Below, in pieces: positions 10,236 to 64,000 of a stretch of DNA of 64,000 bases. The position numbers and the translations under genes were made by a program. Within the stretch, counting starts at the first letter, position 1; every line of letters begins with the position of its first letter. The notes beneath the pieces were generated by a model. It had not been told where the DNA came from. It made no database searches and worked only from the letters and a program-made list of their open reading frames with translations. Origin of the DNA: Nitrososphaeraceae archaeon (GTDB taxonomy: Archaea > Thermoproteota > Nitrososphaeria > Nitrososphaerales > Nitrososphaeraceae). The stretch is taken from assembly GCA_035250975.1 (NCBI GenBank), contig DATFEP010000014.1:44646-108645 (forward strand), read 5' to 3'.

Positions 10236-10243
10236 ATTTTAGA

Positions 10244-45919: not shown

Positions 45920-47320
45920 ATGGGCCAAGATCCCAACTCAATCAAGGTTTTCATTAGTTATTCTCATGAGGATAGTGAAAAAGCCAAACGTCTTTATTCA
46001 AAATTAAAGGAGTGGAACGTAGATCCTTGGTTTGATCAGGAATCGCTTAGAGCAGGTGAGAAATGGGAGGTAAAGATAAAGGAAGCAATCAAAAATAGTC
46101 AGTATTTTATACCAGTATTATCCAAAAATTCGACAGAGGAAACAGGATACGTATTAAAAGAGTTAAATGATGCCATAAAAATTCTTAAAGAACTTCCGGA
46201 CTCTAAGATCTATATAATACCTATACGTGTCGATGATTGCCAAGTACTAGAATCAACAGTTGAAGAACTTCAAAAAATTCAAGAACTTCATATTGTTGAC
46301 CTCTTTCCAGATGAAGAATGGAATAAAGGGTTTCAGAAAATATTGGATGCAATGGGAATTGAAGATAAACCAGATAAATTAGGTAAGGAATACTGGGAAA
46401 GTTTACTGACTGATATCGATAAAAAAGAATGTATTCCAGTCATAGGGGATGGATCGCTGGAATCCTATGATCGACAGGACGATGAAGCCTTTCTCACAAC
46501 TAAAGAAATCGCCTTGGAATTGGCAGAAAAAAATGACTACCCTTTGGATGATCCCTCTCAGTTATCGAAGGTTACTCAATATTTAGCAATACGTGAAAAT
46601 AATGAAATGTATCCAAAAAATGTAGTTAGTAATATGCTCGGTCGTTTAAAACCTCCCGATTTTGCAAATAAATATAGAAGATCTCTTCATGCAGTCCTTA
46701 CCAAGTTAAATTTGCCAATATACATTACTACCACTTACGATCTCTTCATGGAAGAAGCCTTGAAGAGTGATGGAAAGGAGCCTCACAGTGAGTGTTGTCG
46801 CTGGAATGATGACTTGCGTAAGTTGACAACATATGGAGGTTTTCCTTCCGTGTTTGATAAAAAATCAGGATATAAGATACCTACAGAAAAGGATCCACTA
46901 GTATATCATCTTCATGGGTCCATCGAGTATCCTAATTCCATGGTTTTGACCGAACGAGATTATTTCGATTTTGTTATTAATATGAATAAAATAGAAGATG
47001 AAAAAGTAATGCTACCATCGGTTCTTAGAACTAAAATAACACAATCTACACTATTATTTCTTGGATATCGCTTAGATGATATAGATTTTCGTTCAATATT
47101 TCAAGGAGCACTCAGCTTTTATGCAAGTACACGTGGTATGAAAAATAATTTTGTAATAATACAGCTTCCAGATATCGATGATTACGGTAAAAGAAAAAAG
47201 GTAATACAGTATTTAAGAGACAAATCTAAAAATATGTTTCATTTAATTGTTTACTGGGGAAGTATTGATGAATTTGTAGAAGAATTATTGAAAAATTGGG
47301 AAAAATTTAAAAATGGATAG
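45920..47320 (+). CDS. TIR domain + SIR2-like (SIR2_2) domain protein
   Basis: VFISYSHED..WFDQESLRAGEKW..KEL (TIR); CIPVIGDGS, YITTTYD, VYHLHGS, VLTERDY, LLFLGYRLDD.DF (SIR2). Confidence 0.88.
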   Translation: MGQDPNSIKVFISYSHEDSEKAKRLYSKLKEWNVDPWFDQESLRAGEKWEVKIKEAIKNSQYFIPVLSKNSTEETGYVLKELNDAIKILKELPDSKIYIIPIRVDDCQVLESTVEELQKIQELHIVDLFPDEEWNKGFQKILDAMGIEDKPDKLGKEYWESLLTDIDKKECIPVIGDGSLESYDRQDDEAFLTTKEIALELAEKNDYPLDDPSQLSKVTQYLAIRENNEMYPKNVVSNMLGRLKPPDFANKYRRSLHAVLTKLNLPIYITTTYDLFMEEALKSDGKEPHSECCRWNDDLRKLTTYGGFPSVFDKKSGYKIPTEKDPLVYHLHGSIEYPNSMVLTERDYFDFVINMNKIEDEKVMLPSVLRTKITQSTLLFLGYRLDDIDFRSIFQGALSFYASTRGMKNNFVIIQLPDIDDYGKRKKVIQYLRDKSKNMFHLIVYWGSIDEFVEELLKNWEKFKNG

Positions 47321-50300
47321 CTCTGGAGAATCATCCCAATCTTCCAATGGAGAGAACAAAAATTATTATGAACCTTACATAGGACCCCGCGCTTTCGGTA
47401 GAACTGAGGATGATGAGGAACGATTCTTTGGAAGAGACGAGGAAACTCAAGAGATTGTTGCTCTTATTTCTTCTCATAAGCTCGTTTTGATTTATGCCCA
47501 ATCAGGGGCAGGAAAGACATCCATAATGAATGCTGAGGTTATTCCAACTTTAGAAAGATATGGATTTATGGTTCTTCCAGTGACCAGAGTGAGAGTTTCT
47601 TCCGATATTGTTTATGACCAGTCATCATATGATAATTCGATATATAAGACACAAATATCAAATGTTTATATTTTTAATGCTCTTACAAGTCTCAAATCAG
47701 ATACAGACCCGCAATTATTCAAGAATAAAACATTATCTGAATTTTTAAAAGAATATTTCCCTTCTAACAAAGAAAAGAATGGAAAGAACCGTCCACAAGT
47801 ATTAATATTTGACCAGCTCGAAGAAATTTTTAGCATTTTTCCAAAGAATTGGAAAGAGCAAAGAGAAGATTTCTTTAACCAAGTAACAAATGCCTTGAAT
47901 GATATTATTCCACTTCAAGTTGTATTTATTATTAGAGAAGACTATTTAGCTCAATTAGATACTTATAGGGATCTCCTTCCTGAAAAATTGAGACCACGTT
48001 TTAGACTCGAACGACTGAATCAAGATTCGGCTTTATCAGCAGTTCAAGGTCCATTAAAAAAAATTCCAAAAGATTTCATGAAAGAAAAAAAAGAGGATGT
48101 GGAAAGAGAAATAAAAAGATTAATCAAAGAGTTGATGAAAATTCAAGTTGAAGATTCACTAGGTAGGACACATCAGGTAGAAGGTGAATTTATAGAACCA
48201 ATACAGCTACAGGTTGTTTTTAGGAGATGGTGGAAAAACAAACAAAGCCTTCATGACAAAAATAACGAAGACAAAATGGTTGATATATTTGAAGTAGATA
48301 AAGCGTTGGAAGATTTCTATGATGAAGCCATTCATCAATGTCTTCAAACTGGAACATCTGAGGATGAAATTAGAAAATGGTGTGAAGAAAAATTAATTAC
48401 TTCTAGTGGAACTCGTAGTATTGTTCATCGAGGTTTACAGGATACTGAAGACTTGAAAAATAACGTCATCGAAATTCTTGAAAATAAATATTATTTGATT
48501 AGGGGAGAATGGCGTGCTGGAGCAAAATGGTATGAACTTGCACATGATCGATTAATTAATCCAATAAAATCATCAAATCAGAGATGGAGAAGAGAGCAGG
48601 AATTAAAAAAGAGATCCACGATTAAAAAAGTTGCTATACCATCAATAATAACAGCTGTTATGATAGGCATAGCTCTTTCTATGTATTTTGCACCTATTCA
48701 GTATGATATAAATTCCTTTGAGGATATTAAGTTGAGTGAAACTCCATACATACTGGCTGTGAATTCAGGTACTGGAGCTGTATATGCTTCTAATGCTCCT
48801 GATACTAACATAACTGTGATAGATGGAGAAAGTGACAAAGTTACTAAATATATTCAGGTAAAATATAAACCGTTCGACATAGAAGTTGATCCGAAGAGGG
48901 ATACATTATATGTGACACATCCAGAGAGCGATAAAATATCTGTTATAGATTTGAAAAAAGACCAGGACAATTTTAAATACCTAGACTCCAAGGGACGTCC
49001 TTCTTTTATGGGGTTAGATTCTAATAATTCCCTATTATACGTAACTAACTTTGCAGGTAGCACTGTGTCTGTTATTAATTTAACTACAAACAATGTGCAG
49101 GATACTGTGAAGGTGGGAAGAAATCCTATGGGCATAGACATAGATTCCGGGACGGCATATGTAACTAATTCTAGGGATAACACTGTGTCTGTTATAGATT
49201 TAACTACAAACAATGTGCAGGATACTGTGAAGGTGGGAAGAAATCCTACAGATATAGAGATAGATTCGGGTAAGGCATATGTAACTAATTGGATAGACAA
49301 TACTGTGTCTGTTATAGATTTAACTATAAATAAGGTTCAACATACTGTGAATGTGGGAAGAAATCCTACAGATATAGAGATCAATCCTTCTTCTAGTAAG
49401 GTATTTGTAGCTCATTCTGGAGACACAATCGTGTCTGTTATAGATCCACAATTAGATATCGTAGTGGGAACATTGAAAGTAGGCGAAGGAAAGCGACCCA
49501 TTGCATTAGGAATAAATTCAGTTCAAAATATATTATATGTAGCTCGTCATAACGATAACTTCATAAGAGCTATAGACATGAAGGACCATCCGTCAACAGA
49601 AGTTTTGTCCAATATCCCAGTAGCCACTCACCCTTCTGGAATAGCAATTGCGACATCTCAAGATAATAAAACCAAAACGGTATACGTAACTAACAAAGGC
49701 TCCAATAGTGTAAGTATCATAGATGGAATTACAAACATGGTTAAAAAAGTTCTTCAGGTTGGACAAGAGCCCAGCGATATAGATATTAATTCTAACACTA
49801 AAAAATTATATGTGTCTAATTCACTTTCAAACAGTATATCTGTTATAGACATAGGCAAGGAAGAAGTTGAGTATACGATAGATTCCATCGGTAAAAGCCC
49901 AATCAAACTAGCAGTTGACGATAATAAAGATTTAATATATGTGATTAACAACGGCTCTAACAACGTATCTGTTATAAATGGAACTACAAGAGAAGTTATA
50001 GGAGATATAAAAGTGAAAGATATGCCTACAGATATTGTTGTCGATTCCAATAATCATCTAGTATATGTAACTAATTCTGATAATTCTTCTTCTTCTGTAT
50101 CTGTTATAAATGGAACTACAAGAGAAGTTATCGGAGACATACCTATGAATCCTAATAATACAAAATCTGTTGGAGATAAACCTACAGATATTCTTGTTGA
50201 TTCAAAGGACAAGCGAGCATATATAGTTACGCAGGATGGTAAAATCGTCAAGCTAGAAACGCAAAAAATTACAGATAAGAATAGCCAGTTTAACTATAAT

Positions 50301-50450
50301 ATAACGGATTATGTTACAATTGTTGCCGATAATTTTGGTAAACTTCCTGGTTTGGATTTAAATTCGGAAATCGCTTTAAATTCAGAATCTGATGAAATTT
50401 ATATCACTAGTATGGAAAAGAATGTTATGTACATTCTTCATACGAAGTAA
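47313..50450 (+). CDS. STAND (nSTAND1-like) P-loop ATPase + single TM + YVTN/YncE beta-propeller
   Basis: PYIGPRAF..FFGRDEE, Walker A YAQSGAGKTS, Walker B VLIFDQLEE, IREDY, PIQLQVV, YELAHDRL; TM VAIPSIITAVMIGIALSMYF; about 13-14 YVTN..VSVID blades. Confidence 0.9.
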   Translation: MDSSGESSQSSNGENKNYYEPYIGPRAFGRTEDDEERFFGRDEETQEIVALISSHKLVLIYAQSGAGKTSIMNAEVIPTLERYGFMVLPVTRVRVSSDIVYDQSSYDNSIYKTQISNVYIFNALTSLKSDTDPQLFKNKTLSEFLKEYFPSNKEKNGKNRPQVLIFDQLEEIFSIFPKNWKEQREDFFNQVTNALNDIIPLQVVFIIREDYLAQLDTYRDLLPEKLRPRFRLERLNQDSALSAVQGPLKKIPKDFMKEKKEDVEREIKRLIKELMKIQVEDSLGRTHQVEGEFIEPIQLQVVFRRWWKNKQSLHDKNNEDKMVDIFEVDKALEDFYDEAIHQCLQTGTSEDEIRKWCEEKLITSSGTRSIVHRGLQDTEDLKNNVIEILENKYYLIRGEWRAGAKWYELAHDRLINPIKSSNQRWRREQELKKRSTIKKVAIPSIITAVMIGIALSMYFAPIQYDINSFEDIKLSETPYILAVNSGTGAVYASNAPDTNITVIDGESDKVTKYIQVKYKPFDIEVDPKRDTLYVTHPESDKISVIDLKKDQDNFKYLDSKGRPSFMGLDSNNSLLYVTNFAGSTVSVINLTTNNVQDTVKVGRNPMGIDIDSGTAYVTNSRDNTVSVIDLTTNNVQDTVKVGRNPTDIEIDSGKAYVTNWIDNTVSVIDLTINKVQHTVNVGRNPTDIEINPSSSKVFVAHSGDTIVSVIDPQLDIVVGTLKVGEGKRPIALGINSVQNILYVARHNDNFIRAIDMKDHPSTEVLSNIPVATHPSGIAIATSQDNKTKTVYVTNKGSNSVSIIDGITNMVKKVLQVGQEPSDIDINSNTKKLYVSNSLSNSISVIDIGKEEVEYTIDSIGKSPIKLAVDDNKDLIYVINNGSNNVSVINGTTREVIGDIKVKDMPTDIVVDSNNHLVYVTNSDNSSSSVSVINGTTREVIGDIPMNPNNTKSVGDKPTDILVDSKDKRAYIVTQDGKIVKLETQKITDKNSQFNYNITDYVTIVADNFGKLPGLDLNSEIALNSESDEIYITSMEKNVMYILHTK
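49041..49390 (+). repeat. three near-identical 120-bp tandem units (40-aa propeller blades)
   Basis: units begin GTAACTAA at 49041, 49161, 49281 and share ACTGTGTCTGTTAT..ATTTAACTA..GTGGGAAGAAATCCTA. Confidence 0.9.
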
Positions 50451-50669
50451 TAACTAGTGCAAGGTTTAAAGAGTGAAAGATCAAGTGTATATTGGGCACC
50501 GTAGATATAAAATATCTAATAATATACTGCATATATAAAAAAGTAAATATGTAAACATATTAACAAAATTTTCACTTTGATTTATAGGTTGTCAATAAAT
50601 AAATAAATTCATTATGTAAAGTGTCTATAATGATCATGACATAGTCTTCTATCCTAAATTTGGCAGTTA

Positions 50670-51489
50670 GCGAGTAAGCATTTAACTGTAGTAGACACAG
50701 ATAGATCCTTTTTTTCATACCTTGTAAATAATTTCCTGAACCTATTATGCCATGAATTCGTTCTCTCCACGTGTCATCTTCTTGTAGGACGTCTGTTATT
50801 ATTGAGTTTTTTTTCTTCTCTTATGCGTTGTATATGTAAATATATTCTCATTTGACAATTGTTCTGTTTTTTGAATCGTGTGTTTTATAAAGAGACATGG
50901 TTGCTTTTTCATCTTCCTGTTTGTATATTTCGTTGTTGATTTTGAAAAAGGTCTTTTGATAACTATGATGTGAAATTGCAGCAGTAATGTCATGAGAATT
51001 TGGAGATGTTACAACAGTAGAACGTGTGATACCTTGCTTACGTGTTAAAATATGTCTTTACGTTTTAAACCTTCTTCTATCAACAGGATCATGTCAGGTA
51101 ATCGCCTTTCAAATGTCATTTTACTGATATCTTTCAAGAGACTGCCATTTCCAAGTTATTCACTGTTTATTAAGAATACCAAGTTGACTCTCTTGCCGAA
51201 ATCTTCCGGACATGTTGAACCAGAACCATATCCTTCCGGTACCATATATTTTTCATCAACATCCAGTCCTCAGGAGAATTATGATACCATCAATTAGTTT
51301 TCCCTACGGTAGATTAGGACGGCCTGTGGTGTTATCCGCTTTCTCATCCGGTGCAACATTTTTAATCTCATTTCAAAGATCATCTGCACTACGTGTGCTG
51401 GTTCTAAAGAACTTTTTATTCTTAAACAAACATTACCAGATACAACAAGAAACCAACAAGCCACTTCGTATCTCTTTTTGGGTAGGCTC
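50670..51489 (-). mobile_element. degenerate IS5-family element (related to 9517-10235)
   Basis: minus-strand GIIILLRTGC..PEGYGSGSTC and VERTNSWHNRFRKLFTRYEKK; element start GAGCCTACCCAAAA on the minus strand. Confidence 0.8.
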
Positions 51490-51605
51490 CAAGTATTTTG
51501 ATATGTACGATTGATACAGTAGAGAATTAATACAGTACATTATCCATAGCAGATTTGCAGATATCTTTAAAAATAAGAATGCAGAATAATATTCTAGACC
51601 CAAAT

Positions 51606-51818
51606 ATGGAAAAAAAATCCCTATTAGCAGTTTTAATTCCCATTATTGCGTTTAACGCTGTAATGGTTTCGCCAGTGTTTGCAATAGATGGACAAGACAA
51701 TAATGTAAGTGAAATGCAGTACTATGGTGGTGGATATTGCTGCTCTATCATAGAGGAGCCAACGTATAATTTACATCCAATGATGATAGTTTCTAGCGTA
51801 TTAGAAGGAAATACATAG
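51606..51818 (+). CDS. small secreted peptide
   Basis: MEKK + hydrophobic core + SPVFA cleavage site; mature part contains YYGGGYCC. Confidence 0.5.
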   Translation: MEKKSLLAVLIPIIAFNAVMVSPVFAIDGQDNNVSEMQYYGGGYCCSIIEEPTYNLHPMMIVSSVLEGNT

Positions 51819-52435: not shown

Positions 52436-53020
52436 ATAATGTATAATTGAAATATAAAAAATTCCTTAAAAGTTATGTAAATCCATAGATTAACAATTAA
52501 CTAACATTTACCTTTGTGGCAATCATGTCTGATGTATCTTTAGCTCGGTGTATATCTACAAAATTATCGCTTGGTAAGATGCACTCATCTCATAGAAATC
52601 GCAGATAAAGACGTCAAAAAAAACAGCTGGGTTAACCGAAATATTTGTGTCTTTTCTTAAAATATTTTGGAGTGCATTCCAAAAATTAATCTGCTGAAAA
52701 TAATTGTAATAAATTAAAGATCCTGTATTTCATCGACAGGCATAGGTGATATCACTATTCTTCGATAGAAAGAGCTCTGCCCATGTCAATTCTCTTGAGT
52801 TTGCTATTTTTTGTATGATTTTTTTGTTCTTTTTTCATGTATTTATAGACAGATATTTACTCATACTAAGCTTCTCTTGCTACTGTCTGTCTATCTTTTT
52901 GGCAGGATGTAGTCTCTGTCTCTAAGAGGCTTGTCCTCAAAAGCTCATTTGTGACTAGGCTCAAGACCATAATAATATTAGTAATTAGTGGGAACATTAT
53001 ATTTGGATGTCTGGATTGAT

Positions 53021-54406
53021 TTAATCTATCTTTTTCTGGATTGCTTCTTCTATTTTTTTTGTCCATGGTACAAGTTCATTCCTTTTTTCTCTTGCCTTTC
53101 TTATGGTACGTAAATTTCTCAAGGTAGTTTCACCTTCCCATCTTTCCCTTAAATGAGATAATGCTTTTGAAAGGAAATTAAAAGATGTCTCTTTATTTTT
53201 CGCAAGAATTGCCAGTTCTAATAGAGTGGCATAATCCCAGTAATCAGGCTTACCCTTTGTAATTTTTCGTTCGACAGAATATTTAACCACAGGAATGAGA
53301 TCCATTATTTTTGGATCTGGATTCTTTTTTATCTCCATCAAAGTAACAGCGTTAATCCCGGGATATGTGTCCCTCCAATCACTTTCAAATCCTTTTAGAT
53401 ATGCATCAATAGCTTGATCTAGATATGCATCTGATAAGTAATAGGATTCATTATTGTCTTTGTCATTTCCTTTTTGTCTTTCTTCCTTGTTGTATTCTTT
53501 TTCCCATCTATCTTTATAGACACGACCCAAAATACCATAGGTTTCACTACTAGGTCCTTTTTTTTCTATAAGCGATAACAAAATCCTTTCTGCTTCCTCA
53601 CTATGGCCTGCCCTATTAAGAGCAAAAGCATACTGCTCTTGAACAAGAGTAGTGGAATACAAAGGTTCCGGCATTAAAGTAACAAATTCAGCCATCTCCT
53701 CCCATTCTTCTTTTTTCTTTGCTAATGCTCTGTAAGAAAGAAAGATATCTATTATTACTCCGGCTTCTTGGTTCTTGATATCCTTTAATGATAAAACAAA
53801 ATTTCTCAGATCAATAATATTCTTTTCTCTTCGTATTTGTGCTAACTGTTTCTTTAATTCCTCAGAATAATTTACTCTTTCTCGAAAAACATCAGTTTTT
53901 ATGTGTTGAATATCTGGAAATCCTTCAACTAATTGAAATATGGGGCTATCTGTATTAGGATTTTGTGCTTCAATCAGTCTTCTTTTTAAAATCTCTTTTG
54001 ACTTATTGTTTGCTTGTTGATCAGGTTTGCCTGAATAAGAATCAAGTTTATACGGGATAGCATGAAGAGGAGCTATATCAAATGGTAGTTGTTTTGTTCC
54101 TTCTGCAAACAACAAGACTGTACTATAGGGACGTACTGCATGTCTAACTCCCAATTCATAAAATACATTAGGATTAGCAGTGGTAAGATCTACAACAGCA
54201 TATTCACATAAAATTAATCTTTCAAACATTGGTTTATGAATTACTCCACCTACTTTCTCTTCGTCTGCTCTAATTGGTTTTAGACCTGCCTCTTCAATAG
54301 CTGGAAAAATAAGGTTGTTATAAACAGAATCAAAATCTATCAAAAGCCCACCATTATCAGCCTTTTTACCAAACGGCATGAGAACAAAACATAGTGGGGA
54401 AGACAC
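53021..54406 (-). CDS. DUF4071/MAP3K TRAFs-binding family protein (deoxyribohydrolase-like N-domain + TPR sensor)
   Basis: CFVLMPFG, RADEE..GG.IH..MF, DLTTANPNVFYELGVRHA, Q.AFALNR, ETYGILGRVYKD, YPGINAVTL, DYWDYAT. Confidence 0.88.
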   Translation of the reverse strand: MSSPLCFVLMPFGKKADNGGLLIDFDSVYNNLIFPAIEEAGLKPIRADEEKVGGVIHKPMFERLILCEYAVVDLTTANPNVFYELGVRHAVRPYSTVLLFAEGTKQLPFDIAPLHAIPYKLDSYSGKPDQQANNKSKEILKRRLIEAQNPNTDSPIFQLVEGFPDIQHIKTDVFRERVNYSEELKKQLAQIRREKNIIDLRNFVLSLKDIKNQEAGVIIDIFLSYRALAKKKEEWEEMAEFVTLMPEPLYSTTLVQEQYAFALNRAGHSEEAERILLSLIEKKGPSSETYGILGRVYKDRWEKEYNKEERQKGNDKDNNESYYLSDAYLDQAIDAYLKGFESDWRDTYPGINAVTLMEIKKNPDPKIMDLIPVVKYSVERKITKGKPDYWDYATLLELAILAKNKETSFNFLSKALSHLRERWEGETTLRNLRTIRKAREKRNELVPWTKKIEEAIQKKID

Positions 54407-54727
54407 TATAGTCTATAACAATATGGATGATAAAAAGATATTTAATAAATAAAAACAATATTAAAAAGAGGTAATACGTGTTACAAGATAATAGTTTAAA
54501 AATCTATTAGTAGATACTGACAATTACTGAATTAAATTGTTAATAAAAGTAGAATTTATTTCTTTTATGTCTTTTAAATATAAAATGGAAAATTCTTGAT
54601 AACTCTAATGTATAACAAGAAGATGCGATCAAAATTTTGGAAGGTACAATTAAGAGGCTTTTAATTGAATTTCCCAAATTTTTAAAGAATTTCACAAAAA
54701 AAATAAATACTTTAAAACAAGATAAAT

Positions 54728-55936
54728 ATGGATCTGAAAAAAATTTTTGTGTCATATAGCAGGGCTGATGGAGGTGATTTTGCGGATCATATCCAAGAAC
54801 ACTATGAAAAAGATGGGCATCAGGTTTTTATTGATTTTTACGATATAAAACCAGGAGAAGACTGGTCAGAGACTATAAGAAATTCAATAACTGAATCTGA
54901 TTTTGTAGCTGTAATTGTAACTCGTTCAGCACTGAGAAGTACAGAAGTGGAAAAAGAAATTTTGGAAGCAAGAAAACAAAATAAGACTATAATCCCATGT
55001 AGATATAAAGGAATCTTGTGGACTGATTTAAAGTGGGATTTGAATAAATTGCAAGGTTTCCAATTTGATAATAAAAATTCTTTGATTAGACAACTCGATG
55101 ACATAATTTTTAGTGAAAATAGATCTGCTATTCCAAGTTTACACGAAGAGAAGGAAGAAGAACTAGGAATTCGTAATCAGGAGTTTAGACGTAAAAAATT
55201 AATAAAAATGATATCTATAACAATTATTTCAATCATTGCAATTACAGGAGTTGTTATTGGAATCGTAGGTTTTACGCCTCAACCTTCACCCGGTACGATA
55301 GATAGTGGGACCAATGGGACCAATAACGAAGCAACAATTCAGCCTGATGTAGATACTTTATTTTCCTCTGCACTCTCATCTTATAAAATAGGGGAATATT
55401 CTGACGCTGTATCTTCTTTTGATAAGGTACTTCAAATAGAGCCAAACAATGTCACAGCTCTATTCTTGAAAGGCTCTTCACTATTTAAAGATGCAAAGTA
55501 TCCTGACGCTGTATCTTCTTTTGATAAAGTAATTAACATCAATGCAAATAATACAGACGCCTTGTTATACAAAGGATTATCCCTTTACAATTTAGAAAAA
55601 TACAATGATGCTATAGCTGAATTTAACAGAATACGTGCCGTAGAACCAACAAACACAGACGCCTTGCTATACAAAGGATTATCTCTTTATAATTTAGTGA
55701 GATACAATGAGGCTATAGCTGAATTTAACAGAGTACTTGCAGTAGAACCAACAAACACAGACGCCTTGCTATACAAAGGATTATCTCTTTACAATTTAGA
55801 GAGATACAATGAAGCAGTTGCATATTATAATAGAGTATTAGAAATAGATCCAAATAACATAAATGCAACAAAAGAAAAAGAGAAAATCCAACAAATCCAA
55901 CAAAAAGAATCAATTATAAATAGCAGCAAAAAATAA
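54728..55936 (+). CDS. TIR domain + single TM + TPR repeat protein
   Basis: IFVSYSRAD..VFID..IKPGEDW..KEI (TIR); RRKKLIK then a ~22-aa hydrophobic helix; 5 TPRs, the last three near-identical at DNA level (102-bp period). Confidence 0.88.
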   Translation: MDLKKIFVSYSRADGGDFADHIQEHYEKDGHQVFIDFYDIKPGEDWSETIRNSITESDFVAVIVTRSALRSTEVEKEILEARKQNKTIIPCRYKGILWTDLKWDLNKLQGFQFDNKNSLIRQLDDIIFSENRSAIPSLHEEKEEELGIRNQEFRRKKLIKMISITIISIIAITGVVIGIVGFTPQPSPGTIDSGTNGTNNEATIQPDVDTLFSSALSSYKIGEYSDAVSSFDKVLQIEPNNVTALFLKGSSLFKDAKYPDAVSSFDKVININANNTDALLYKGLSLYNLEKYNDAIAEFNRIRAVEPTNTDALLYKGLSLYNLVRYNEAIAEFNRVLAVEPTNTDALLYKGLSLYNLERYNEAVAYYNRVLEIDPNNINATKEKEKIQQIQQKESIINSSKK

Positions 55937-56219
55937 TTAAAAAAGCTTCTAACTCTTTTTCTTTACCCATTTTAATGATATTGTTTAGTCATATTAGATT
56001 AATATTGATAATTTTTAACTTTATTTTTATTTAGAGCTAGATTATTAAATGATATTCAACTTCATCAAGAAAATAATGCTCAAATATTACTGATGTTATT
56101 AAAAATATAAAAATCTAACCTGATATTTATACCATCTGTTGGAATGAAGTCCATCTCGAATAAGACTAACATCTAATAATTTTTTCTTATATCTAATCTT
56201 ATATCTAAAATAGTATTTT

Positions 56220-59200
56220 CTATTGTTTTGCATTATTATTATTCATTATTTTATTAAAAACGCTTAATTCTTTTTCAGTTAATATGTCTGTTAAGTTAGC
56301 ATTTATTTTCAGAGATTTCTCATAATATAACTTGGCCTCATCAGTTTTACCCAGGTTATATAGGATGAATGCCATAGTACTTTGGAAAATGTCGTTATTA
56401 TCAGGATTAGATAAAGCTGCTTTTTCTATAACTGAAAGTGCTTCACCATATCTTTCCAATTCAGCTAAAGCAACGGCTTTCCCGTTTAGTGCACGAAGAT
56501 CTGATGGCCATATAGATAGGACTTTATCATAGTACTGTAGAGCTTCATCATATCTTTGTAGATGATCCAAAACACTGGCTTTGTTATATGTTGCACTAAC
56601 ATCTAATGGCTCAATAGCTAAAATTTTATCATAGTTCTCTAATGCTTCATCATATCTTTTGAGATCTTTTAAAACAAGGGCTTTGCCCTTTAGTGCAAAA
56701 ACATCCTGAAGATCTATAGCTAGGACTTTATCATAGTACTGTAGAGCTTCATCAAATTTTTGTAGACTTTGTAAAACAAGGGCTTTGCCCATTAGTACAC
56801 TAATACGTGTTGGATCTACAGCTAGTGCTTTATGATAGTACTGTAGAGCTTCATCATATCTTTGTAGATCATCTAAAATACTGGCTTTGTTAGAAAGTGC
56901 ATAAACATGTGTTGGATCTACAGCTAGGACTTTATCATAGTACTGTAGAGCTTCATCATATCTTTGTAGATTTTCTAAAACAACGGCTTTGCCATTTAGT
57001 ACACTAATATGTGTTGGATCTATATCTAATGCTTTATCATAGTACTGTAGAGCTTCATCATATCTTTTTAAATGTTGTAAAGCACTGGCTTTGTTATACA
57101 ATGCACTATCATATTTTGGATCAATAGCTAGTGCTTTATCGTAATACTCTAATGCTTCATCATATCTTTGCAGATCTTTTAAAACAACGGCTTTGCCATT
57201 TAGTACACTAGTATGTGTTGGATCTATATCTAATGCTTTATCATAGTACTGTAGAGCTTCATCATATTTTTTTAGCTCTTGTAAAACAACGGCTTTATTA
57301 TACAATGTAGTAACACGTAATGGCTCAATAGCTAAAATTTTGTCATAGTACTCTATAGCTTCATCATATCTTTGCAAATTTTTTAAAGCAAGGGCTTTCC
57401 CATTTAGGATACTGATATCCAATAGATCTATGGCTAGGGCTTTATCATAGTACTCTACAGCTTCATCATATCTCTTTAAATCTGATAAAGCATTGGCTTT
57501 GCCGTTTAGTGCACTAACATCTGATGGTTCTATAGATAGCACTTTATCAAAGTACTCTACAGCTTCATCATATCTCTTTAAATCTTGTAAAAGAGTGGCT
57601 TTATCAATGAGTATCCTAACATCCAATGGTTCTATTGCAAGTACTTTATCATAGTACTGTAGAGCTTCATCATATCTTTGCAAATTTTTTAAAGCATATC
57701 CTTTATCATTTAGTGCACGAGCATTTGATGGTTCTATCGCTAAAATTTTGTCAAAGTACTCTATAGCCTCATCATATTTTTTTAGATCTAGTAAAACAGT
57801 GGCTTTGTTACCCAGTGCATTAAGATATTTTGGATCTATAGATAATATCTTATCAAAGTACTCTATAGCTTCGTCATTTCTTTGCAGATTTTTTAAAACA
57901 GTGGCTTTATCATTTAGGGCATTAACATTTGATGGCTCGATAGCTAAAATTTTGTCAAAGTACTCTATAGCCTCATCATATTTTTTTAGATCTAGTAAAA
58001 CAGTGGCTTTGTTGCCTAATGCATAAATATGTAAAGGCTCTATTTTAAGTACTTTATCATAGTACTCTATAGCCTCATCATATCTTTGCAGGTTTTTTAA
58101 AACAAATCCTTTATCATTTAATGCATAAATATTTGAAGGCTCTATCGCTAAAATTTTATCATAGTTCTCTAAGGCTTCATCATATCTTTTCAGATCTAGT
58201 AAAACATGGGCTTTGTTACCCAGTGCATTAAGATGTTTTGGATCTATAGATAATATCTTATCATAGTTCTCTAAGGCTTCATCATATCTTTTCAAATCTT
58301 TTAAAGCAACGGCTTTATCATTTAGTGCATTAACATTTGAAGGCTCTATTTTAAGTACTTCGTCATAAAACTCTATAGCCTCATCATACCTTTGCAGATT
58401 TTTTAAAATATATCCTTTATCATTTAATGCATTAACATTTGTTGGTTCTATAGCAAGGATTTTATCATAGTTCTCTAAGGCTTCATCATATCTTTGTAAG
58501 AAACCGAAGATAATGGCTCTGTTATGTAATGCATAAATATGTGAAGGCTCTATCGCTAGGACTTTATCAAAGTACTCTATAGCCTCATCATATCTTTGCA
58601 GATTTTTTAAAATATATCCTTTATCATTTAGTGCATAAATATTTGAAGGCTCTATTGAAAGTACTTCGTCATAAAACTCTATAGCCTCATCATATTTTTG
58701 CTGTTCATTAAAAACCATTGCTTTGTTATATAGTGCAAGAACATATGTTGGCTCTATCGCTAGGACTTTATCAAAGTACTCTATAGCCTCATCATATTTT
58801 TTTAGCTCTTGTAAGACTAAACCTTTATTATTTAGTGCATAAATATGTGAAGGCTCTATTTTAAGTACTTTATCAAAGTACTCTATAGCCTCATCATATC
58901 TTTGCAGGTTTTTTAAAGCAAGACCTATGCCATTCAAGGCATTGATATATGTTGGCTCTATCGCTAGGACTTTACCATAGTACTCTATAGCTTCGATATA
59001 TCTTTGTAGATTCTGTAAAATATTGGCTTTGTTATAAAGTGAATTAACATATGTTGGCTCTATCGCTAGGACTTTATCATAATACTCTATAGCTTCATCA
59101 TATCTTTGTAGATTCTGTAAATAAATACCTTTATCATTTAGTGCATTAACATTTGAAGGATCCAGTACAAGTACTTTATCAATATACTCTATAGCTTCAT

Positions 59201-59424
59201 CATATTTTTGTTGCTCATAAAATAGAAGCTTTGTGATGAAATGTGCCTATGTCTGTTAAATTTATTATTGATGATGCATTTTGAGATTCACCAAAAGTAG
59301 GAAGAAATAGGTAAAAAGATAACGAAAAAAAAAAAATAAAAATCATATTAAAAAAATAAAAATAATTGATTTTTGTTAATGATACAGTAGTGGATGGACC
59401 TGTTTTAAGAATAATCAAATACAA
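56220..59424 (-). pseudogene. large secreted TPR-array protein (about 28 repeats) split by a frameshift near 59220; downstream ORF 56220-58937 intact
   Basis: 59215-59424 encodes a signal peptide ending HHKASIL*; the next frame reads YEQQKYDEAIEY... without a stop into the 905-aa TPR ORF; 102-bp repeat periodicity. Confidence 0.8.
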
Positions 59425-59548
59425 TTACATTATAATTCTAACACTATAAAAATATTTAACAGTCATTCTGGTTTATTATTTTAAATTACTTTGGATTTGT
59501 ATAAATATTTTGTAATCATTGATTTATATAGTAGAGATTATATTTTTT

Positions 59549-59870
59549 ATGATCAGAAAAAAAATGATGAAGCAATACAATACTAGAACAAGGCTTTAGA
59601 AATAGATTCTAATTTCACTGATTCTATAAATGGAAAAACCTATACTTTAGCTAAAATGGGAAAATATAACAAAACATTTTCAGTTATAGAAAAAGTAGTC
59701 AATGATGAATATTTGTCAAGTACTATGGCTTTATTCTATATAATTTAGGGAAAATCGATGGTGCTAGATCGCAGTAAGACAAATCTCTAAAAATAAATGT
59801 GAATTTGACTACGATACGAACACCAAAAGATTTAACTGTATTTAATAAACTAATGAATAATGCAAAATAA
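59549..59870 (+). pseudogene. inverted degenerate paralog of the TPR protein C-terminus
   Basis: fragments NDEAIQY*NKALEID, STMA..LYNLGKID, KSLKINVNLT..FNKLMNNAK* match the C-terminus of 56220-58937. Confidence 0.75.
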
Positions 59871-60417
59871 GATTCAGTATCTTGACCTCATTTAATTTGA
59901 GGCACAAATTGTTAAGAAATCAACTAAATTGAATATGTATTGGAGACTATCTACAAATCATAGTATAAACAAAAGATTCAGAAATACAAAAGAGCTCATG
60001 AAGTAGGTTGTTTGCCTCTTCACATATCATCGTAATTTATAACATTGTTTATTTCTAAAATCTAGCATTTCAAAATTTAAGATGTAAAAAACATTCAATC
60101 TTATAACAAGCAAAGCATTTAATGTAATTCTAGAAAAGATATTTCGAAGTACAGGAAAGAATTCAAAAAGAAAATTCTGTGATGCAGAGAGAAATTTTTC
60201 ATTTATTTTTATAAGTAAAAATGTTTCAGAATTAATCAGCAAGCATATTTTTTCTTTAGCACATTTTAAGTTAATCTTCTTGACTTTTCTACCTGTATTT
60301 TACTGTGAATATTTATTCTATGTTTTCAATTCTGACTAAAAGGAAAATAAAATTTCAGAAATTTAGGCACATATGTCTTAATATAACTTTATATTTAATA
60401 AGTTAACCAATATTACA

Positions 60418-60753
60418 GTGCTTAAAGGAAAATTACTAAATTTGGTATTTAATATATTTATTATTTTTAGTACCTTTATGTTAGTAAATACCATACCGTA
60501 TGTATTAGGACAAGCAAGTACTGCAGACCATGAAACAATGCAGAAAATCCAAGAATTGGCAATTCGGATTCAACAAACGTTCGATCAATTACCACCAGAA
60601 CAACAAGAAATAGCAATACCACTTTTACAAAAAATGATGCAAAATGTTTTTACGGAATCTTCTCCACAACAACAAGAATTGATCATTCAAAAGTTGAATC
60701 AAATATTCCCACCCCAATTTGTAGAAAAATTATTGCCACCTGGCTATAAGTAA
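60418..60753 (+). CDS. small secreted Gln-rich helical protein
   Basis: hydrophobic leader; LPPEQQE / SSPQQQE repeats. Confidence 0.7.
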   Translation: MLKGKLLNLVFNIFIIFSTFMLVNTIPYVLGQASTADHETMQKIQELAIRIQQTFDQLPPEQQEIAIPLLQKMMQNVFTESSPQQQELIIQKLNQIFPPQFVEKLLPPGYK

Positions 60754-61278
60754 AATACTTTACCAGTACCTGAGAACCCCATCGAAACTGCTCCTTGAGC
60801 TCCTTATATTATATTTCTTCTGATTTTGGTAGATCAGTAATTATGTAAGATTTTAATTTTCGTACAAAAAAAGCTTTAATATGTAATATAACCCCCAATA
60901 TTAGAAACAATGAGTCGACAGGAAGGTTAATAATCATATGATCTAACTAACTAAAGACACAAAAAGTATTATCTATTTAAAAATTACTATACTTAATTAC
61001 GTTTTTTTAATCTGTTTTTAGAAAATTAATTTCTATTCTTTTATTAAGGATTTATGCATATTAATAGATAAACAATCTCTAAGAATCTATTATCGAGTAA
61101 CTAGTAATAGTATTTGCAAATAAATTTCTGTCTTAAAATATAATTAAATTGCCTATTAAAGTATCAACATAGATTTTTTGTTATGATATAACTAAAAACA
61201 AAAAATAATTGTCAGTATTGCAATGGTGCTTTATCAATGGATATATTTAAAGATTAGATATATCTAGAATGAGTTGAT

Positions 61279-62655
61279 TTGTCCGAAAAACCAACAAACT
61301 ATTATACAGCATTATGTTTTGTTGATATGCCATTTGGTAAAAAGATAGATCCCATCAGTGCTGTTGAGATTGATTTTGATCATATATATGAATCAGCTAT
61401 CAAACCAGCAATAGAAGATGCAGGCTTAGAAGCGTTAAGAGGTGATGAAGAAAAAACTGGTGGTATTATTCATACTGCAATGTTTGCTCGGCTTATACTT
61501 GCAGAATTTGTTGTTGCAGATTTAACTCTGGCCAATGCAAATGTGTTTTATGAACTTGGGATTCGTCATGCAGCAAAGCCTTATACCACGGTATCAATTT
61601 ATGCAAATTCCCATCAATTACCTTTTGACGTTACTATGATACGGTCTATTAACTACAAATTAGAGAATGGACGACTAAGTGATAATGAAATAGAGAAGCT
61701 AAGAAAAGAAATAGGAAAGAGACTCACGGAACCAATGCAAGGACAAGCAACAAAAGATAGTCCTTTATTTCAGCTAATTCCTCAATTTCCCGGAATCGAC
61801 TTACCGAATGAAGTAACAGATGCCTTCAAGGATCGAATAAAACATGAAAAGAAATTCCAAGAAAAATTAGACAATGCAAAAAACAACAAGAATTCAAAAG
61901 AGCAAAAGCGTAATGCTCTTTTACAAATTCAACAAGATTTGGGAAATTTAAAAAGGGTTCAACGTAATGTGTTGGTAGATCTTATGTTTTCATTTCGTTC
62001 TGTAGAGTGTTTCGACGAAATGGCACAACTTTGTGAAGAATTTCCTGATAGTCTTAAGAATACCGATATAGTTCGCCAACAATGGGCTTTTGCATTAAAC
62101 AGAAGTATAGACAACCAGCCAAGTAATAGACAAAAGGCTATTTCAATTCTTAAAGACCTGATAAAAGAACATGGTCCTGACCCAGAAACTTTTGGTATTA
62201 TGGGGCGTGTGCACAAAGATCGATATAAGGAATACAAAGAAAAGAAAGACATTCGTGCATCTTCAGCCCTAGATGATGCAATAGACGCATATACAAAAGG
62301 ATTCATGTCCGATCCTCGTAATTATTATCCTGGTATAAACGCTATAACATTACTTATGGAAAAAGGAGATGATGAATCATTTAAAAATGCCAAAGAATTA
62401 ATTCCGTTGGTAAGTTTTGCAGTATCTCGTGTTGGAGGTATCAGTTCTAGTAATTATTGGGATGTAGCAACTATTCTTGAATTATCTTGCATTAACAATG
62501 ACTGGACCATGGCAAAACGTGTACTTCCTAAAGTACTCGATTTGGGTAAAGAATCTTGGATGCTCAAGACTACTTCTGCCAATCTAAATATGCTAAAAAA
62601 AGCTACATCCAGCCAAGACCTAGATGAAATTATAAGATATTTGGACCAAATCTAA
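61279..62655 (+). CDS. DUF4071/MAP3K TRAFs-binding family protein, second paralog
   Basis: CFVDMPFG, RGDEEKTGGIIH, ADLTLANANVFYELGIRHA, QQWAFALNR, ETFGIMGRVHKD, YPGINAITL, NYWDVAT. Confidence 0.88.
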   Translation: MSEKPTNYYTALCFVDMPFGKKIDPISAVEIDFDHIYESAIKPAIEDAGLEALRGDEEKTGGIIHTAMFARLILAEFVVADLTLANANVFYELGIRHAAKPYTTVSIYANSHQLPFDVTMIRSINYKLENGRLSDNEIEKLRKEIGKRLTEPMQGQATKDSPLFQLIPQFPGIDLPNEVTDAFKDRIKHEKKFQEKLDNAKNNKNSKEQKRNALLQIQQDLGNLKRVQRNVLVDLMFSFRSVECFDEMAQLCEEFPDSLKNTDIVRQQWAFALNRSIDNQPSNRQKAISILKDLIKEHGPDPETFGIMGRVHKDRYKEYKEKKDIRASSALDDAIDAYTKGFMSDPRNYYPGINAITLLMEKGDDESFKNAKELIPLVSFAVSRVGGISSSNYWDVATILELSCINNDWTMAKRVLPKVLDLGKESWMLKTTSANLNMLKKATSSQDLDEIIRYLDQI

Positions 62656-63449
62656 ATAAAAAGAGAATTGAGAAAAGATATAGAAAATCTAGTGAAAACA
62701 TTAAACCAAAAGAGTTTTGACTCAATTTCGGCTTTTCCATCCTTTTGGGGAAAAGGTAAGTATATGATCATTTATTACAATTTTGGCAAATATAATAGTG
62801 GGACACCACTAAAGAAAATAAATTTAACATTTTAATATCTTTTTACCAAATAGGAACAAATATTGTCTAATCGTTAAGACATATCGTTAATAAATGAATT
62901 ATAAATATTTTCATGATGGATATGAGATAATAAAGCTAAAAAGTTCCTGACAATTGAATGTTGATTTCATATTTAGCAATTTAATTATGACGTCAATATA
63001 AAAAATTGTTTATTTATATTTTATAGTTTATGTAGAGATTTTTTGGTTTATATCTAAAAGAATGATCAATCTCCAGAATTCAACATATATGATAAATATG
63101 TGTATATATATAGGCGAAACTTAATTTGTGATTTTTAAAAATATGGAAATTTAAAGTAGCTATAAAAATTATAAAGATAGAAAAAAATAAATTTAAAAGA
63201 AAAACTAATTGTAGGTCACAATTCAAATTAACAAGAATCTGTCACCAAAGAAAAAATTGAAGAAAAAGTCTATATAAAAAGTTTTATAAAAATATGAAAG
63301 GAGTATCTAATAATAATCAATCTTTTAGGATTGTCATGTATCTATTATTGAAGATAGATAGTGTTTTTATAACATTTGTATGTATGCCATTTATAGAAGA
63401 AAATCATATTAACTATTTTAACCTCTATTCTTTTATTATAATATTGAAG

Positions 63450-64000
63450 ATGTCTACCATAAATATTGATCATTACATTAAATCCAGATTAGAAGAGCAA
63501 ATTAGTTGGTATGATCAAAAAGCAAATTATGATAAATTTAGATATCGAATATTTCAAATTATTGTTATAATAGCCAGTGCTCTAATCCCTCTCATTAATC
63601 TAACTTCTTCTGCTTTCACTTGGGCTCAACATGGTGCACTAATAACTTCTGCGATTTTAGGAAGTATCATCACCATAATAACTGCATTTGTAGCAATGGA
63701 AAAATATTATGAAACATGGATCCTATACCGAGCAACTGCAGAATCACTAAAACGAGAAAAATTTTTCTATGAAAATAATGCAAATTCATATCATAATCTA
63801 ATAAAGGAAGAGAAAGATAGAATATTAGTTGAAAGAGTTGAATTATTACTTTCTTTAGAGAACTCAAAGTTCTTTGCATTACAACAGCAACAACCAGAGC
63901 AACAGCAACAACCAGAGCAACAGCAACAACCAGAGCAACAGCAACAACCAGAGCAACAGCAACAACCAGAGCAACAGCAAAAACCAGAGCAACAGCAACA
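63450..64000 (+). CDS. SLATT-domain (DUF4231) two-TM protein, 3'-truncated by the window end
   Basis: absent from the ORF track; YIKSRLEEQISWYDQKA..FQIIVIIASALIPLI..LGSIITIITAF..YETWILYRATAESLKREKFFY..LVERVE. Confidence 0.88.
   Translation, partial: MSTINIDHYIKSRLEEQISWYDQKANYDKFRYRIFQIIVIIASALIPLINLTSSAFTWAQHGALITSAILGSIITIITAFVAMEKYYETWILYRATAESLKREKFFYENNANSYHNLIKEEKDRILVERVELLLSLENSKFFALQQQQPEQQQQPEQQQQPEQQQQPEQQQQPEQQQKPEQQQ
63882..64000 (+). repeat. 18-bp tandem repeat (CAACAGCAACAACCAGAG)n encoding QQQQPE
   Basis: at least 6.5 copies, one variant (QQQKPE), continues past the window edge. Confidence 0.95.

Follow-up and report, generated by a model that had tools for sequence, protein, structure and literature searches.

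In Avs (AVAST) defence proteins a single polypeptide carries an N-terminal effector, a STAND nucleoside triphosphatase (NTPase) and a cytoplasmic C-terminal sensor, and some Avs proteins carry SIR2. The nSTAND1 clade was named in the pertinent part of Kaur et al. 2021 (PMC8195603), and phage-sensing STANDs are described in the relevant section of PMC12803255 as recognising foreign molecules inside cells. Type VII Thoeris, as set out in the passages of a recent preprint that treat it (bioRxiv 10.64898/2025.12.03.692087), joins a TIR protein to the SLATT effector ThsH, and type VIII joins a TIR protein to ThsI, which has a 'CMP hydrolase' domain and a TPR region whose role in TIR signalling was predicted by Burroughs and Aravind, 2020 (cited in the same preprint). 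These passages also report that TIRs of both types produce canonical cyclic ADP-ribose (cADPR) upon infection, that cADPR is toxic and halts growth of cells with ThsH or ThsI, and that rare TIR operons contain both effectors. For BcTir/Tpr of Bacillus cereus, a second preprint (bioRxiv 10.1101/2023.05.26.542521) describes phage defence in the sections concerned, assigns hydrolysis of nicotinamide adenine dinucleotide (NAD) and synthesis of a cADPR isomer to the N-terminal glycosidase domain of Tpr, and groups Tpr-centred assemblies by TIR, YpsA, LSDAT, patatin, calcineurin, transmembrane (TM) and caspase partners. In flies, according to the portion of PMC13455253 on this point, cADPR is genetically upstream of Ask1. 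Here we analyse a 64,000-nucleotide stretch of DNA from a Nitrososphaeraceae archaeon (assembly GCA_035250975.1, contig DATFEP010000014.1, positions 44,646 to 108,645), hereafter the window, whose last third holds an island in which a TIR-SIR2 protein and a membrane nSTAND1 protein are found together with ThsI-like and ThsH-like proteins.

The window is the last 64 kb of a contig of 108,645 bases, in a genome of 2.49 Mb that is 94.6% complete. Seven long open reading frames (ORFs) make up the island:

45920-47320, plus strand: TIR-SIR2 protein of 466 residues (Pfam TIR_2 7.5e-26, SIR2_2 9.7e-25)
47313-50450, plus strand: nSTAND1 NTPase (residues 1-435), TM helix (residues 436-463) and YVTN/NHL beta-propeller (Pfam, NCBIfam, hydropathy)
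53021-54406, minus strand: DUF4071a, ThsI-like, with an N-terminal domain of putative TIR/DNPH1/MilB fold and a TPR-S region (Pfam PF13281 1.4e-43, TPR-S 2.3e-26)
54728-55936, plus strand: TIR-TM-TPR protein (Pfam TIR_2 1.4e-20 plus TPR; TM helix at residues 157-185 by hydropathy)
56220-59346, minus strand: giant TPR array, about 29 repeats behind a signal-peptide-like N-terminus (from the ORF frames)
61279-62655, plus strand: DUF4071b, ThsI-like, of a large and highly conserved family (Pfam PF13281 4.8e-48, TPR-S 2.2e-25)
63450-64000, possible start 63294, plus strand: SLATT/DUF4231 protein with two TM segments, ThsH-like, cut by the contig end (Pfam, NCBIfam, TM segments)

All seven are open, and the TIR Glu, the SIR2 His, the Walker A motif and the invariant motifs of DUF4071 are intact. 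The domain architectures listed in a first-pass annotation of this DNA were all recovered with Pfam, the STAND and TIR-TPR proteins having one membrane helix each, and the annotation's description of the genes as conflict-type is borne out. The clustering of such genes exceeds chance. Three TIR_2 matches occur in the whole 2.49-Mb genome, two of them within this stretch, and by tblastn both DUF4071 copies and the genome's sole SLATT match lie within the island. Upstream, the 27 ORFs of at least 100 residues scanned in the first 40 kb of the window encode housekeeping or surface proteins, and the one PADLOC match among them is a DndA/SspA-like cysteine desulfurase. When the window is compared with 24 genomes of its genus, DNA similarity ends at about 45162, just ahead of the first island gene. 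No tRNA gene or Rfam family was found across the window, so no integration site was identified. TIR_2 matches are present in 20 of 81 sampled Nitrososphaeraceae genomes (19 of 80 without the unpublished G310), thus TIR proteins are not rare in the family; full-length relatives of the window TIR-SIR2 protein were seen in one of 60 other related genomes. Archaeal AmoA is encoded elsewhere in the genome, so the host had been correctly labelled an ammonia-oxidising archaeon; no paper on TIR systems in these archaea turned up in a brief literature search. PADLOC-DB v2, run on the island ORFs, named no complete system. The earlier view that the combination is not a named system holds for the whole only; its TIR/DUF4071/SLATT part matches type VII/VIII Thoeris and BcTir/Tpr and, according to the preprints on these systems, had been predicted in 2020. 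We read the stretch as a conflict island, most likely an antiviral one. That it couples receptor and signal-making modules to Thoeris-type effector modules in one NAD-derived alarm pathway is a reading we regard as evenly poised between right and wrong.

The first two genes overlap by 8 nt. In the TIR-SIR2 protein TIR Glu81 and SIR2 His332 are retained, as seen both in an alignment of four paralogues and in PDB profile alignments. The TIR Glu is invariant in all ten aligned TIRs, and in the PDB profile alignment it falls on the Glu of TIR-APAZ, which we take to be the catalytic residue. In the alignment the SIR2 His corresponds to KomC His146, which is mutated in PDB entry 9xvc. By profile, the closest solved relatives of the SIR2 domain are ThsA and KomC (E 1e-12 to 1e-9); PADLOC matches to ThsA span the SIR2 portion only, and Pfam found no SLOG domain in the protein. 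The N-terminus of the SIR2 family varies: most members carry TIR, many have no domain there, and three of the 120 best relatives have a caspase domain.

The downstream protein matches Pfam nSTAND1 (PF20703) at E 8.5e-28 (98.5 bits, cut-off 27.1) and has in addition a propeller of the YncE/lactonase/NHL kind. It belongs to the nSTAND1 clade, having the P-loop AQSGAGKTS and the Walker B motif LIFDQLEE, and residues G65, G67, K68, D167 and E170 are invariant across 38 aligned relatives. PADLOC gave only mad8, at 0.0028. Hydropathy shows one TM-like segment, at residues 436-463, whose flanks follow the positive-inside pattern (charge +5/-3), and N-x-S/T sequons are distributed 11 to 1 between the C-terminal and the N-terminal part. 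The NTPase is therefore predicted to lie inside the cell and the propeller outside. Of the 120 best database relatives, 116 likewise have a TM-like segment after the NTPase, beginning at a median of residue 441, and so does every full-length partner that we checked. The outer domains are swapped within the family, being propeller, TPR, cadherin-like, FHA or of no assigned type, and between the window copy and that on contig C54 of the same genome identity is 58% in the NTPase but 40% in the outer part.

Pairing of a SIR2 gene with a downstream nSTAND1 gene is recurrent. The source genome carries three such pairs, in the window, on C54 and on C32. At C54 the TIR-SIR2 protein is 51% and the nSTAND1-propeller protein 45% identical to the window copies, and at C32 a SIR2 protein without TIR is followed by nSTAND1-TM-TPR. 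These two pairs are surrounded by housekeeping-type genes (cupin, ferredoxin, P450, dehydrogenase and GAF regulator), so the pair forms a unit by itself. Among 15 assessable loci from archaea, Actinomycetota and Chloroflexota, SIR2 lies directly upstream of nSTAND1 in 14 (three in this genome, G019, L016, L017, L018, G244, G324, G211, G321, L054, L065 and G502). The sole exception, L089, has TIR fused to nSTAND1; L047 and L066, which begin inside nSTAND1, were left out of the count. A search of public genomes with four SIR2 partners returned four loci, all with nSTAND1 directly downstream and two of them bacterial (Dehalococcoidia, Ilumatobacteraceae); one of the four repeats the G019 arrangement and is counted once. 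The phylum to which the Ilumatobacteraceae locus belongs was covered by 301 genomes, two of which have a close relative, each with SIR2 upstream. The nSTAND1 model scores above its cut-off in 8 of 81 Nitrososphaeraceae genomes. Five of these were inspected, and in the four confirmed by a purpose-built hidden Markov model (HMM), G244, G324, G211 and G321, SIR2 is directly upstream every time; the weak match in G259 was not confirmed by this HMM. Our literature search found no account in which SIR2 and a membrane nSTAND1 form a gene pair, although supplementary Thoeris candidate tables or the STAND-clade tables (PMC12803255) may list it, and no description, in the passages searched, of the pair's linkage to ThsI/ThsH-like effectors.

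The effector half of the island is represented by the two DUF4071 proteins and the SLATT protein. PF13281, now MAP3K_TRAF_bd and formerly DUF4071, scores 149.8 and 164.5 bits in the two proteins against a cut-off of 24.1, and TPR-S is above its cut-off in both; PADLOC gave partial matches only. In phmmer, DUF4071a matches ASK1 (8qgy) at E 3e-6 and aligns to human ASK1 from the N-terminal domain onward. The AlphaFold2 model of DUF4071b (predicted local distance difference test, pLDDT, 81.8) has ASK1 as its best solved match in Foldseek (8qgy_B, E 2.5e-10; 5ulm, E 2.3e-8). Judged by sequence and by modelled fold, the DUF4071 proteins are thus relatives of the N-terminal half of ASK1. The N-terminal domain was looked at separately. 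All 11 matches of its profile in the PDB are to DNPH1/Rcl (E 0.067-2), aligned over the invariant Glu of a YELG motif, and its model (pLDDT 80.8) resembles TIR-STING, DNPH1, the CMP hydrolase MilB and the TIR of SARM1 (E 3.8e-3 to 2e-2, TM-score about 0.5-0.6, nothing at E <=1e-3 in Foldseek). These matches suggest, at modest scores, a fold of the TIR/deoxyribosyltransferase-like class. A relationship of the domain to canonical TIRs was tried with hhalign and rejected (no relation, probability 0.4).

DUF4071a is 61% identical to the copy that adjoins TIR-SIR2/nSTAND1 in G324 and 51% to a copy on a Rhizobium plasmid. For DUF4071b, 4567 relatives at E<=0.001 were found among 8000 candidates scored, and the protein is about 60% identical to proteins named from Methanosarcina mazei, ANME-2 and Acidobacteriia. 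Of 251 genomes sampled from the class, however, only 3 have PF13281, each belonging to the window's genus, and so huge a family with so sparse a distribution fits horizontal transfer. Elsewhere TPR-S is fused to patatin, trypsin, alpha/beta hydrolase and caspase-pentapeptide domains. As a separate observation, locus L019 (G001:C60, 10527-12890, minus strand), adjoining a DUF4071a orthologue, encodes a 787-residue protein in which a caspase domain and pentapeptide repeats are joined to the TPR-S half of DUF4071.

The SLATT protein matches DUF4231 at 1.1e-22 and SLATT_1 at 3e-9 in Pfam, and NCBIfam SLATT_1 at E 3e-29 (101.6 bits, cut-off 41). Two TM segments lie within the domain, and PADLOC gave no family at E<=0.01. 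Contig and window both end within the gene, inside a PEQQQQ repeat; the nearest TIR gene of the window is about 7.5 kb upstream, and in the homologous Rhizobium locus a TIR gene directly follows DUF4231. No contig that continues the SLATT gene was found. At 63900-64000 the protein runs into at least six PEQQQQ repeats, a repeat that is probably the reason why the assembly stopped here.

The company kept by the DUF4071b family was surveyed in 80 metagenome loci with our own HMMs, each built from few sequences; many of the loci are short-flanked. A SLOG (LSDAT_prok) gene stands immediately downstream of DUF4071 in 32 of the 80, TIR is present in 26 and DUF4231/SLATT in 20. At least one of TIR, SLATT and SLOG was found in 49 of 80 loci, in 24 of 48 clusters after collapse at 90% identity, and in 21 of the 31 loci whose flanks reach at least 2 kb either way. 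In the window no TIR gene adjoins DUF4071b; relatives that do have a TIR neighbour are seen at L104, L100 and L101. On plasmids, where three annotated loci were opened among 69 records with a match, the Rhizobium locus has DUF4071, DUF4231 and TIR with two further TIR genes upstream, keeping the order DUF4071-then-SLATT of the window, and an Acinetobacter pittii plasmid has TIR, TIR, a DUF4071-like TPR protein and TIR. The first-pass annotation had suggested that the DUF4071 and SLATT proteins read a TIR-made signal; for the island this may hold by analogy, as such a role is reported for ThsI and ThsH in the passages concerned (bioRxiv 10.64898/2025.12.03.692087).

A second, simpler candidate receptor is the TIR-TM-TPR protein. 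It retains Glu77 and has positive-inside flanks of its TM helix (charge +3/-1), which predicts TIR inside and TPR outside. The earlier suggestion of surface repeat sensors is thereby supported for both proteins, since the charges (+5/-3 for the STAND and +3/-1 for the TIR-TPR protein) and, in the former, the sequons (11 vs 1) predict that the repeats lie outside. The gene is divergent from DUF4071a, not co-directional with it, with a 322-nt spacer. At L091 a 70%-identical TIR-TM-TPR relative occurs with a CHAT protein and two DUF4071 genes, and bacterial TIR-WD40 and TIR-YARHG neighbours of DUF4071 likewise have a TM segment between TIR and repeats. The giant TPR gene, in which 56220-58937 (minus strand) gives Pfam TPR_1 at 4.1e-212 with 25 scored repeats, encodes repeats 34-59% identical to the outer TPRs of the TIR-TPR protein, of the C32 nSTAND1 protein and of a C54 gene. 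From this shared sequence with receptor ectodomains one may speculate that the secreted giant TPR protein competes for, or presents, the same ligand as the receptors; many secreted propeller and TPR paralogues are encoded in the genome.

Whether the SIR2-nSTAND1 pair and the effector genes belong together can be judged from loci where both occur. In G324, of another genus in the same family, SLATT (4802-5932), DUF4071 (6144-7490), TIR-SIR2 (7638-9137) and nSTAND1-TM-TPR (9142-11445) are consecutive on one strand, and a TIR-TM-cadherin protein is encoded 7.5 kb beyond this cassette; PADLOC gave no family at 1e-5 for its SLATT and DUF4071 proteins. The bacterial locus L054 has the order TIR-SIR2, nSTAND1-TM-TPR, a gene of 324 residues, DUF4071, SLOG and patatin. 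On the soil metagenome contig of L065 the two halves meet in a single polypeptide of 971 residues, nSTAND1 fused to DUF4071/TPR-S (2650-5565, plus strand), with TIR-SIR2 before and SLOG after it. A 652-residue protein with the same N-terminal domain and TPR-S lies directly upstream of SIR2-nSTAND1 at L016, and in G019 a 657-residue DUF4071 protein and a CHAT protease are within 3-5 kb of the pair. Equal 'longest contig' lengths, shared 11 times between the nSTAND1 and SIR2 relative lists and twice between those of DUF4071b and SIR2, give a rough hint of co-location. Both families are rare in the class, and for this reason the repeated junctions, the fusion included, argue for a functional link. 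A comparison of gene neighbourhoods for recurrent co-occurrence had been named beforehand as a check, and G324, L054 and L065 show such co-occurrence. The idea of a single network is in this way partly backed by gene neighbourhood: its parts recur together, yet the pair is also found alone, and the DUF4071a orthologue of G001 occurs without TIR_2.

These same neighbourhoods bear on another explanation, that independent systems have come to lie in a variable hot spot and that their proximity reflects defence-island clustering. The SIR2-nSTAND1 genes would then be an Avs-like abortive-infection pair, with the STAND protein as sensor and switch and SIR2/TIR depleting NAD+, while TIR-TM-TPR with DUF4071a and DUF4071b with SLATT would be separate Thoeris-like systems of type VIII and type VII. 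We consider this possible, though somewhat unlikely. It accounts well for the pairs that stand alone at C54 and C32 amid housekeeping-type genes and at L018, G244 and G321, for the 75 of 80 DUF4071b-family loci without nSTAND1, in which DUF4071 is mostly accompanied by TIR, SLOG or SLATT, for the insertion sequence (IS) scar and strand switches that divide the units of the window, and for the end of genus DNA similarity near 45162, as expected of a variable spot. It accounts less readily for the contiguous, one-strand cassette of G324, the single polypeptide of nSTAND1 and DUF4071 at L065 and the DUF4071-like gene that abuts SIR2-nSTAND1 at L016. Moreover, PF13281 (3 of 251 genomes) and nSTAND1 (8 of 81) are both infrequent and yet are at most 5 kb apart in G000, G019 and G324.

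Several observations weigh against one joint pathway. Around the C54 and C32 pairs no DUF4071 or SLATT gene was found, nor in G244 and G321 within the 16-20 kb inspected, and in actinobacterial L018 the pair is alone as well. Among the DUF4071b-family loci, nSTAND1 occurs in 5 of 80 and TIR-SIR2 in 2 of 80, and 31 of 80, many of them short-flanked, are without TIR, SLATT or SLOG; the HMMs behind these counts were built from few sequences. The Aliarcobacter plasmid copy has hypothetical neighbours only, with no TIR within 5 kb by our own HMM, and G001, a 97% complete genome, has a DUF4071a orthologue (87% identical) yet no TIR_2 match. Two of the genomes in which the halves lie close, G000 and G019, are kin and not independent. 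The island genes themselves occupy both strands and make up at least four transcription units, interrupted by the IS scar and a gene fragment. The fold matches of the DUF4071 N-terminal domain are modest, at best E 0.067 by PDB profile and 3.8e-3 in Foldseek. Finally, the Asn of the SIR2 motif TTNYD is replaced by Thr272 in the window protein. This Asn is retained in at least 116 of 120 relatives and Thr is found solely in the window's own protein; the contig from sequencing run X1 matches the window at this site with no other letter. As a conserved residue is changed, the SIR2 domain of this copy may be impaired while its TIR is intact.

From the domain content, predicted topology, retained catalytic residues and recurrent linkage that we observe, we infer how sensing, assembly, signalling and outcome might be connected if the modules do form one alarm pathway. 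One receptor module would be TIR-SIR2 with nSTAND1, the latter having its NTPase inside, one membrane helix and the propeller outside, and a simpler one would be the protein whose single membrane helix separates an inner TIR from an outer TPR region. The effector modules would be the two ThsI-like proteins resembling the N-terminal part of ASK1, each with a putative glycosidase-fold domain and a TPR-S sensor, and the ThsH-like SLATT protein. Binding of a cell-surface ligand to the outer propeller or TPR domain would lead to NTP-dependent oligomerisation of nSTAND1, and the nSTAND1 assembly would gather its TIR-SIR2 partner. TIR could then produce a signal of the cyclic-ADP-ribose type, or NAD+ could be consumed, or both. 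Binding of the signal by TPR-S and SLATT would switch on nucleotide or NAD hydrolysis and membrane permeabilisation, with growth arrest or cell death as the outcome.

Such machinery may also respond to something other than a virus, i.e. neighbour cells, competitors, envelope damage or a chemical cue, with regulated dormancy or death in aggregates as its output, a role that has been proposed for conflict systems in prokaryotes of multicellular habit. The predicted outside position of the sensors points this way when compared with phage-sensing STANDs, which act inside cells in the account given in PMC12803255, and so do the many secreted propeller and TPR paralogues and the link of STAND, TIR and SLATT systems to multicellular prokaryotes made in the sections of Kaur et al. 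2020 and 2021 (PMC8195603) that deal with it. The effector half, however, belongs to systems that two preprints describe, in their pertinent parts, as phage defence (bioRxiv 10.64898/2025.12.03.692087, 10.1101/2023.05.26.542521), and patchy distribution, swapped sensors and plasmid carriage fit an antiviral arms race equally well. A non-viral trigger seems to us improbable. We put forward only tentatively, and with more doubt than belief, the wider proposal of an outside-in innate immunity in archaea and bacteria, in which membrane NLR-like (nSTAND1) and Toll-like (TIR-TM-repeat) receptors with exchangeable outer sensors would detect virions or foreign cells at the surface and start TIR-made, cADPR-type signalling, with ASK1-like TPR-S proteins, SLOG proteins and SLATT pores as its readers. 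If true, it would mean surface sensing by STAND and TIR immunity in prokaryotes, and the wiring of animal receptor-TIR and cADPR-ASK1 signalling would have a counterpart among prokaryotes. The TIR and STAND sensors known from prokaryotes are described as intracellular, and a conserved family whose STAND switch and TIR enzyme lie behind a membrane helix, with variable domains outside, would add sensing before or at entry. The pair would supply Thoeris type VII/VIII effectors with an upstream receptor, and the presence of ASK1-sensor-half relatives, TIR, SIR2 and an NLR-type switch in one cassette of archaea and bacteria bears on the origin of the animal TIR/cADPR/ASK1 connection. Ammonia-oxidising archaea are important in the soil nitrogen cycle, which makes their virus defence of ecological interest.

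Three minor features lie between the island genes, two of them remnants:

50705-51490, no strand assigned: degraded IS5-like element (scar), 69% DNA identity over 841 nt (blastn) to C40:19218-20030
59587-59861, plus strand: TPR gene fragment (remnant), a stop-to-stop frame with TPR-like sequence
60418-60753, plus strand: small ORF of 111 residues with a hydrophobic N-terminus (ORF list, hydropathy)

The C40 copy of the IS5-like element has two transposase-like ORFs, called IS5-type from their N-termini, and weaker copies are present on C87, C32, C89, C14 and C15. The TPR fragment, inverted relative to the giant TPR gene, has 70% DNA identity to the 3' end of that gene. For the small ORF the only Pfam match is far below the family cut-off, and no paralogue was found elsewhere in the genome. 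The IS scars and pseudogenes reported in the first-pass annotation are thus present as an IS5-like scar and the TPR fragment, but the giant TPR gene probably does not belong among the pseudogenes. In the window it is frameshifted near 59218, with its start ATG at 59346 in another frame than the repeats. The X1 contig has two extra A behind 59218 that join the frames, and since they restore the frame the shift is probably an assembly slip, or else a population variant. At 45450 and 50900, both non-coding, one extra base each was seen in all three DNA runs (X1, X2 and X4); these bases and the AA at 59218 suggest that the window assembly contains homopolymer errors.

Such remnants raise the question of whether the island is decaying and largely non-functional in this strain, a scrambled remainder of a compact cassette like that of G324. 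The IS5-like scar, the TPR fragment, the scattered orientation and the loss of the conserved SIR2 Asn would suit this, as would the SIR2 or nSTAND1 genes that are split into two frames in G244, G321 and L017. Seven long ORFs are, on the other hand, open with TIR Glu, SIR2 His, Walker A and DUF4071 motifs in place, the sole frameshift is probably an assembly slip, and sequencing runs from other studies contain the region at 90-99% identity. We consider decay very unlikely. Portions of the stretch are contained in sequencing runs of several studies. Contigs of runs X2 and X4 (labels organism A and wastewater) align to it with the identity just given, and run X1, with 0.96 of the sampled words, may be the source sample. 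Run X4 has little or no cover over 52608-63385 and the RNA run X20 has cover in 4 of 30 bins only; the uncovered parts were not used. A 433-nt contig of a metatranscriptome (RNA library) is identical to part of the TIR-SIR2 gene, at best a weak hint of transcription because DNA can occur in RNA libraries.

Some further observations concern the rest of the window and the genus. The cysteine desulfurase mentioned above (13407-14615, minus strand) is a class-V aminotransferase with PADLOC matches to DndA and SspA at 1e-20 to 1e-21. As no further Dnd or Ssp gene was found within the window, we read it as an IscS-like enzyme of the generic kind. At 20576-23590 (minus strand) a protein of 1004 residues combines CopC and CopD copper-resistance domains with a beta-propeller (Vgb_lyase/SGL-like), an unusual fusion in an ammonia oxidiser that depends on copper. 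Some 330 bp at 39750-40086, overlapping an ORF of 99 residues without Pfam match, form a stretch that has many copies at 78-86% identity in nearly all genomes of the genus, at least ten in one, and may be a small mobile element or a repeated gene. Another conflict island of the same genus, L014 (G003:C296, 382-17585), encodes DUF4231/SLATT, DUF4062-NB-ARC-TPR (1358 residues), TIR, DUF4062-HEAT (982 residues), a SLOG(LSDAT)-SLATT fusion (650 residues) and a TIR protein with four TM segments; the part of a 2026 preprint that treats DUF4062 renames it as an NADase domain (10.64898/2026.09.04.749371).

Compared with known systems, the SIR2 domain is nearest to ThsA of type I Thoeris and KomC of Kongming, with which it shares the Gly-rich loop of SIR2_2 and the TTNYD and HG motifs. 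It differs from them in the missing SLOG, in the varying N-terminal partner (TIR, caspase or none) and, in the window copy, in Thr for Asn; assignment to type I ThsA was rejected, as SIR2 is not fused to SLOG. With Avs/bNACHT and nSTAND1 systems, as far as the sections of PMC8195603, PMC12803255 and PMC10907252 on these systems go, the island shares an nSTAND1-clade NTPase, NAD-targeting TIR/SIR2, a variable sensor region and patchy distribution. Here the effector is a separate upstream gene and not an N-terminal fusion, and the STAND protein has a membrane helix after the NTPase and a sensor predicted outside. An Avs/AVAST-type STAND was accordingly considered and rejected, given the separate effector gene with its 8-nt overlap and the TM helix with a predicted outer domain.

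The TIR-TM-TPR protein is predicted to be laid out like a Toll-like receptor, with a single pass, outer repeats and cytoplasmic TIR, a likeness of layout and not of membership; TIR comes first in order, and the repeats are TPR or propeller rather than leucine-rich repeats. On the side of the SARM1/cADPR-ASK1 axis, the DUF4071 proteins are related, by sequence and model, to the N-terminal half of ASK1 (8qgy, 5ulm), whereas the island has no kinase, and the likeness does not establish common descent of the wiring.

BcTir/Tpr, compared here by description from the parts of the preprint that define it, resembles the island in a core protein with N-terminal glycosidase (putative in the island) and C-terminal TPR, in TIR genes alongside, and in LSDAT, patatin, caspase and TM partners as in our metagenome loci. 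In those parts NADase activity and cADPR-isomer synthesis are credited to Tpr and not to TIR, and STAND and SIR2 are absent from the seven partner groups. Type VII/VIII Thoeris differs in that the island TIRs are either membrane-anchored with outer repeats or SIR2-fused and paired with a membrane STAND, partners that go unmentioned in the relevant passages of the Thoeris preprint, which removed TIRs inside Avs. Furthermore, the island is archaeal, its genes do not form one operon, and SLATT has no adjacent TIR on the assembled contig. On the side of likeness, by description rather than by sequence alignment to a tested ThsI, the DUF4071 proteins with TPR-S and a putative 'CMP hydrolase'-type domain fit ThsI, the SLATT membrane protein fits ThsH by description too, and TIR genes with the catalytic Glu lie nearby. 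Taken together, and as judged from sequence, the island's effector half adds a new archaeal member to the type VII/VIII Thoeris-like systems.

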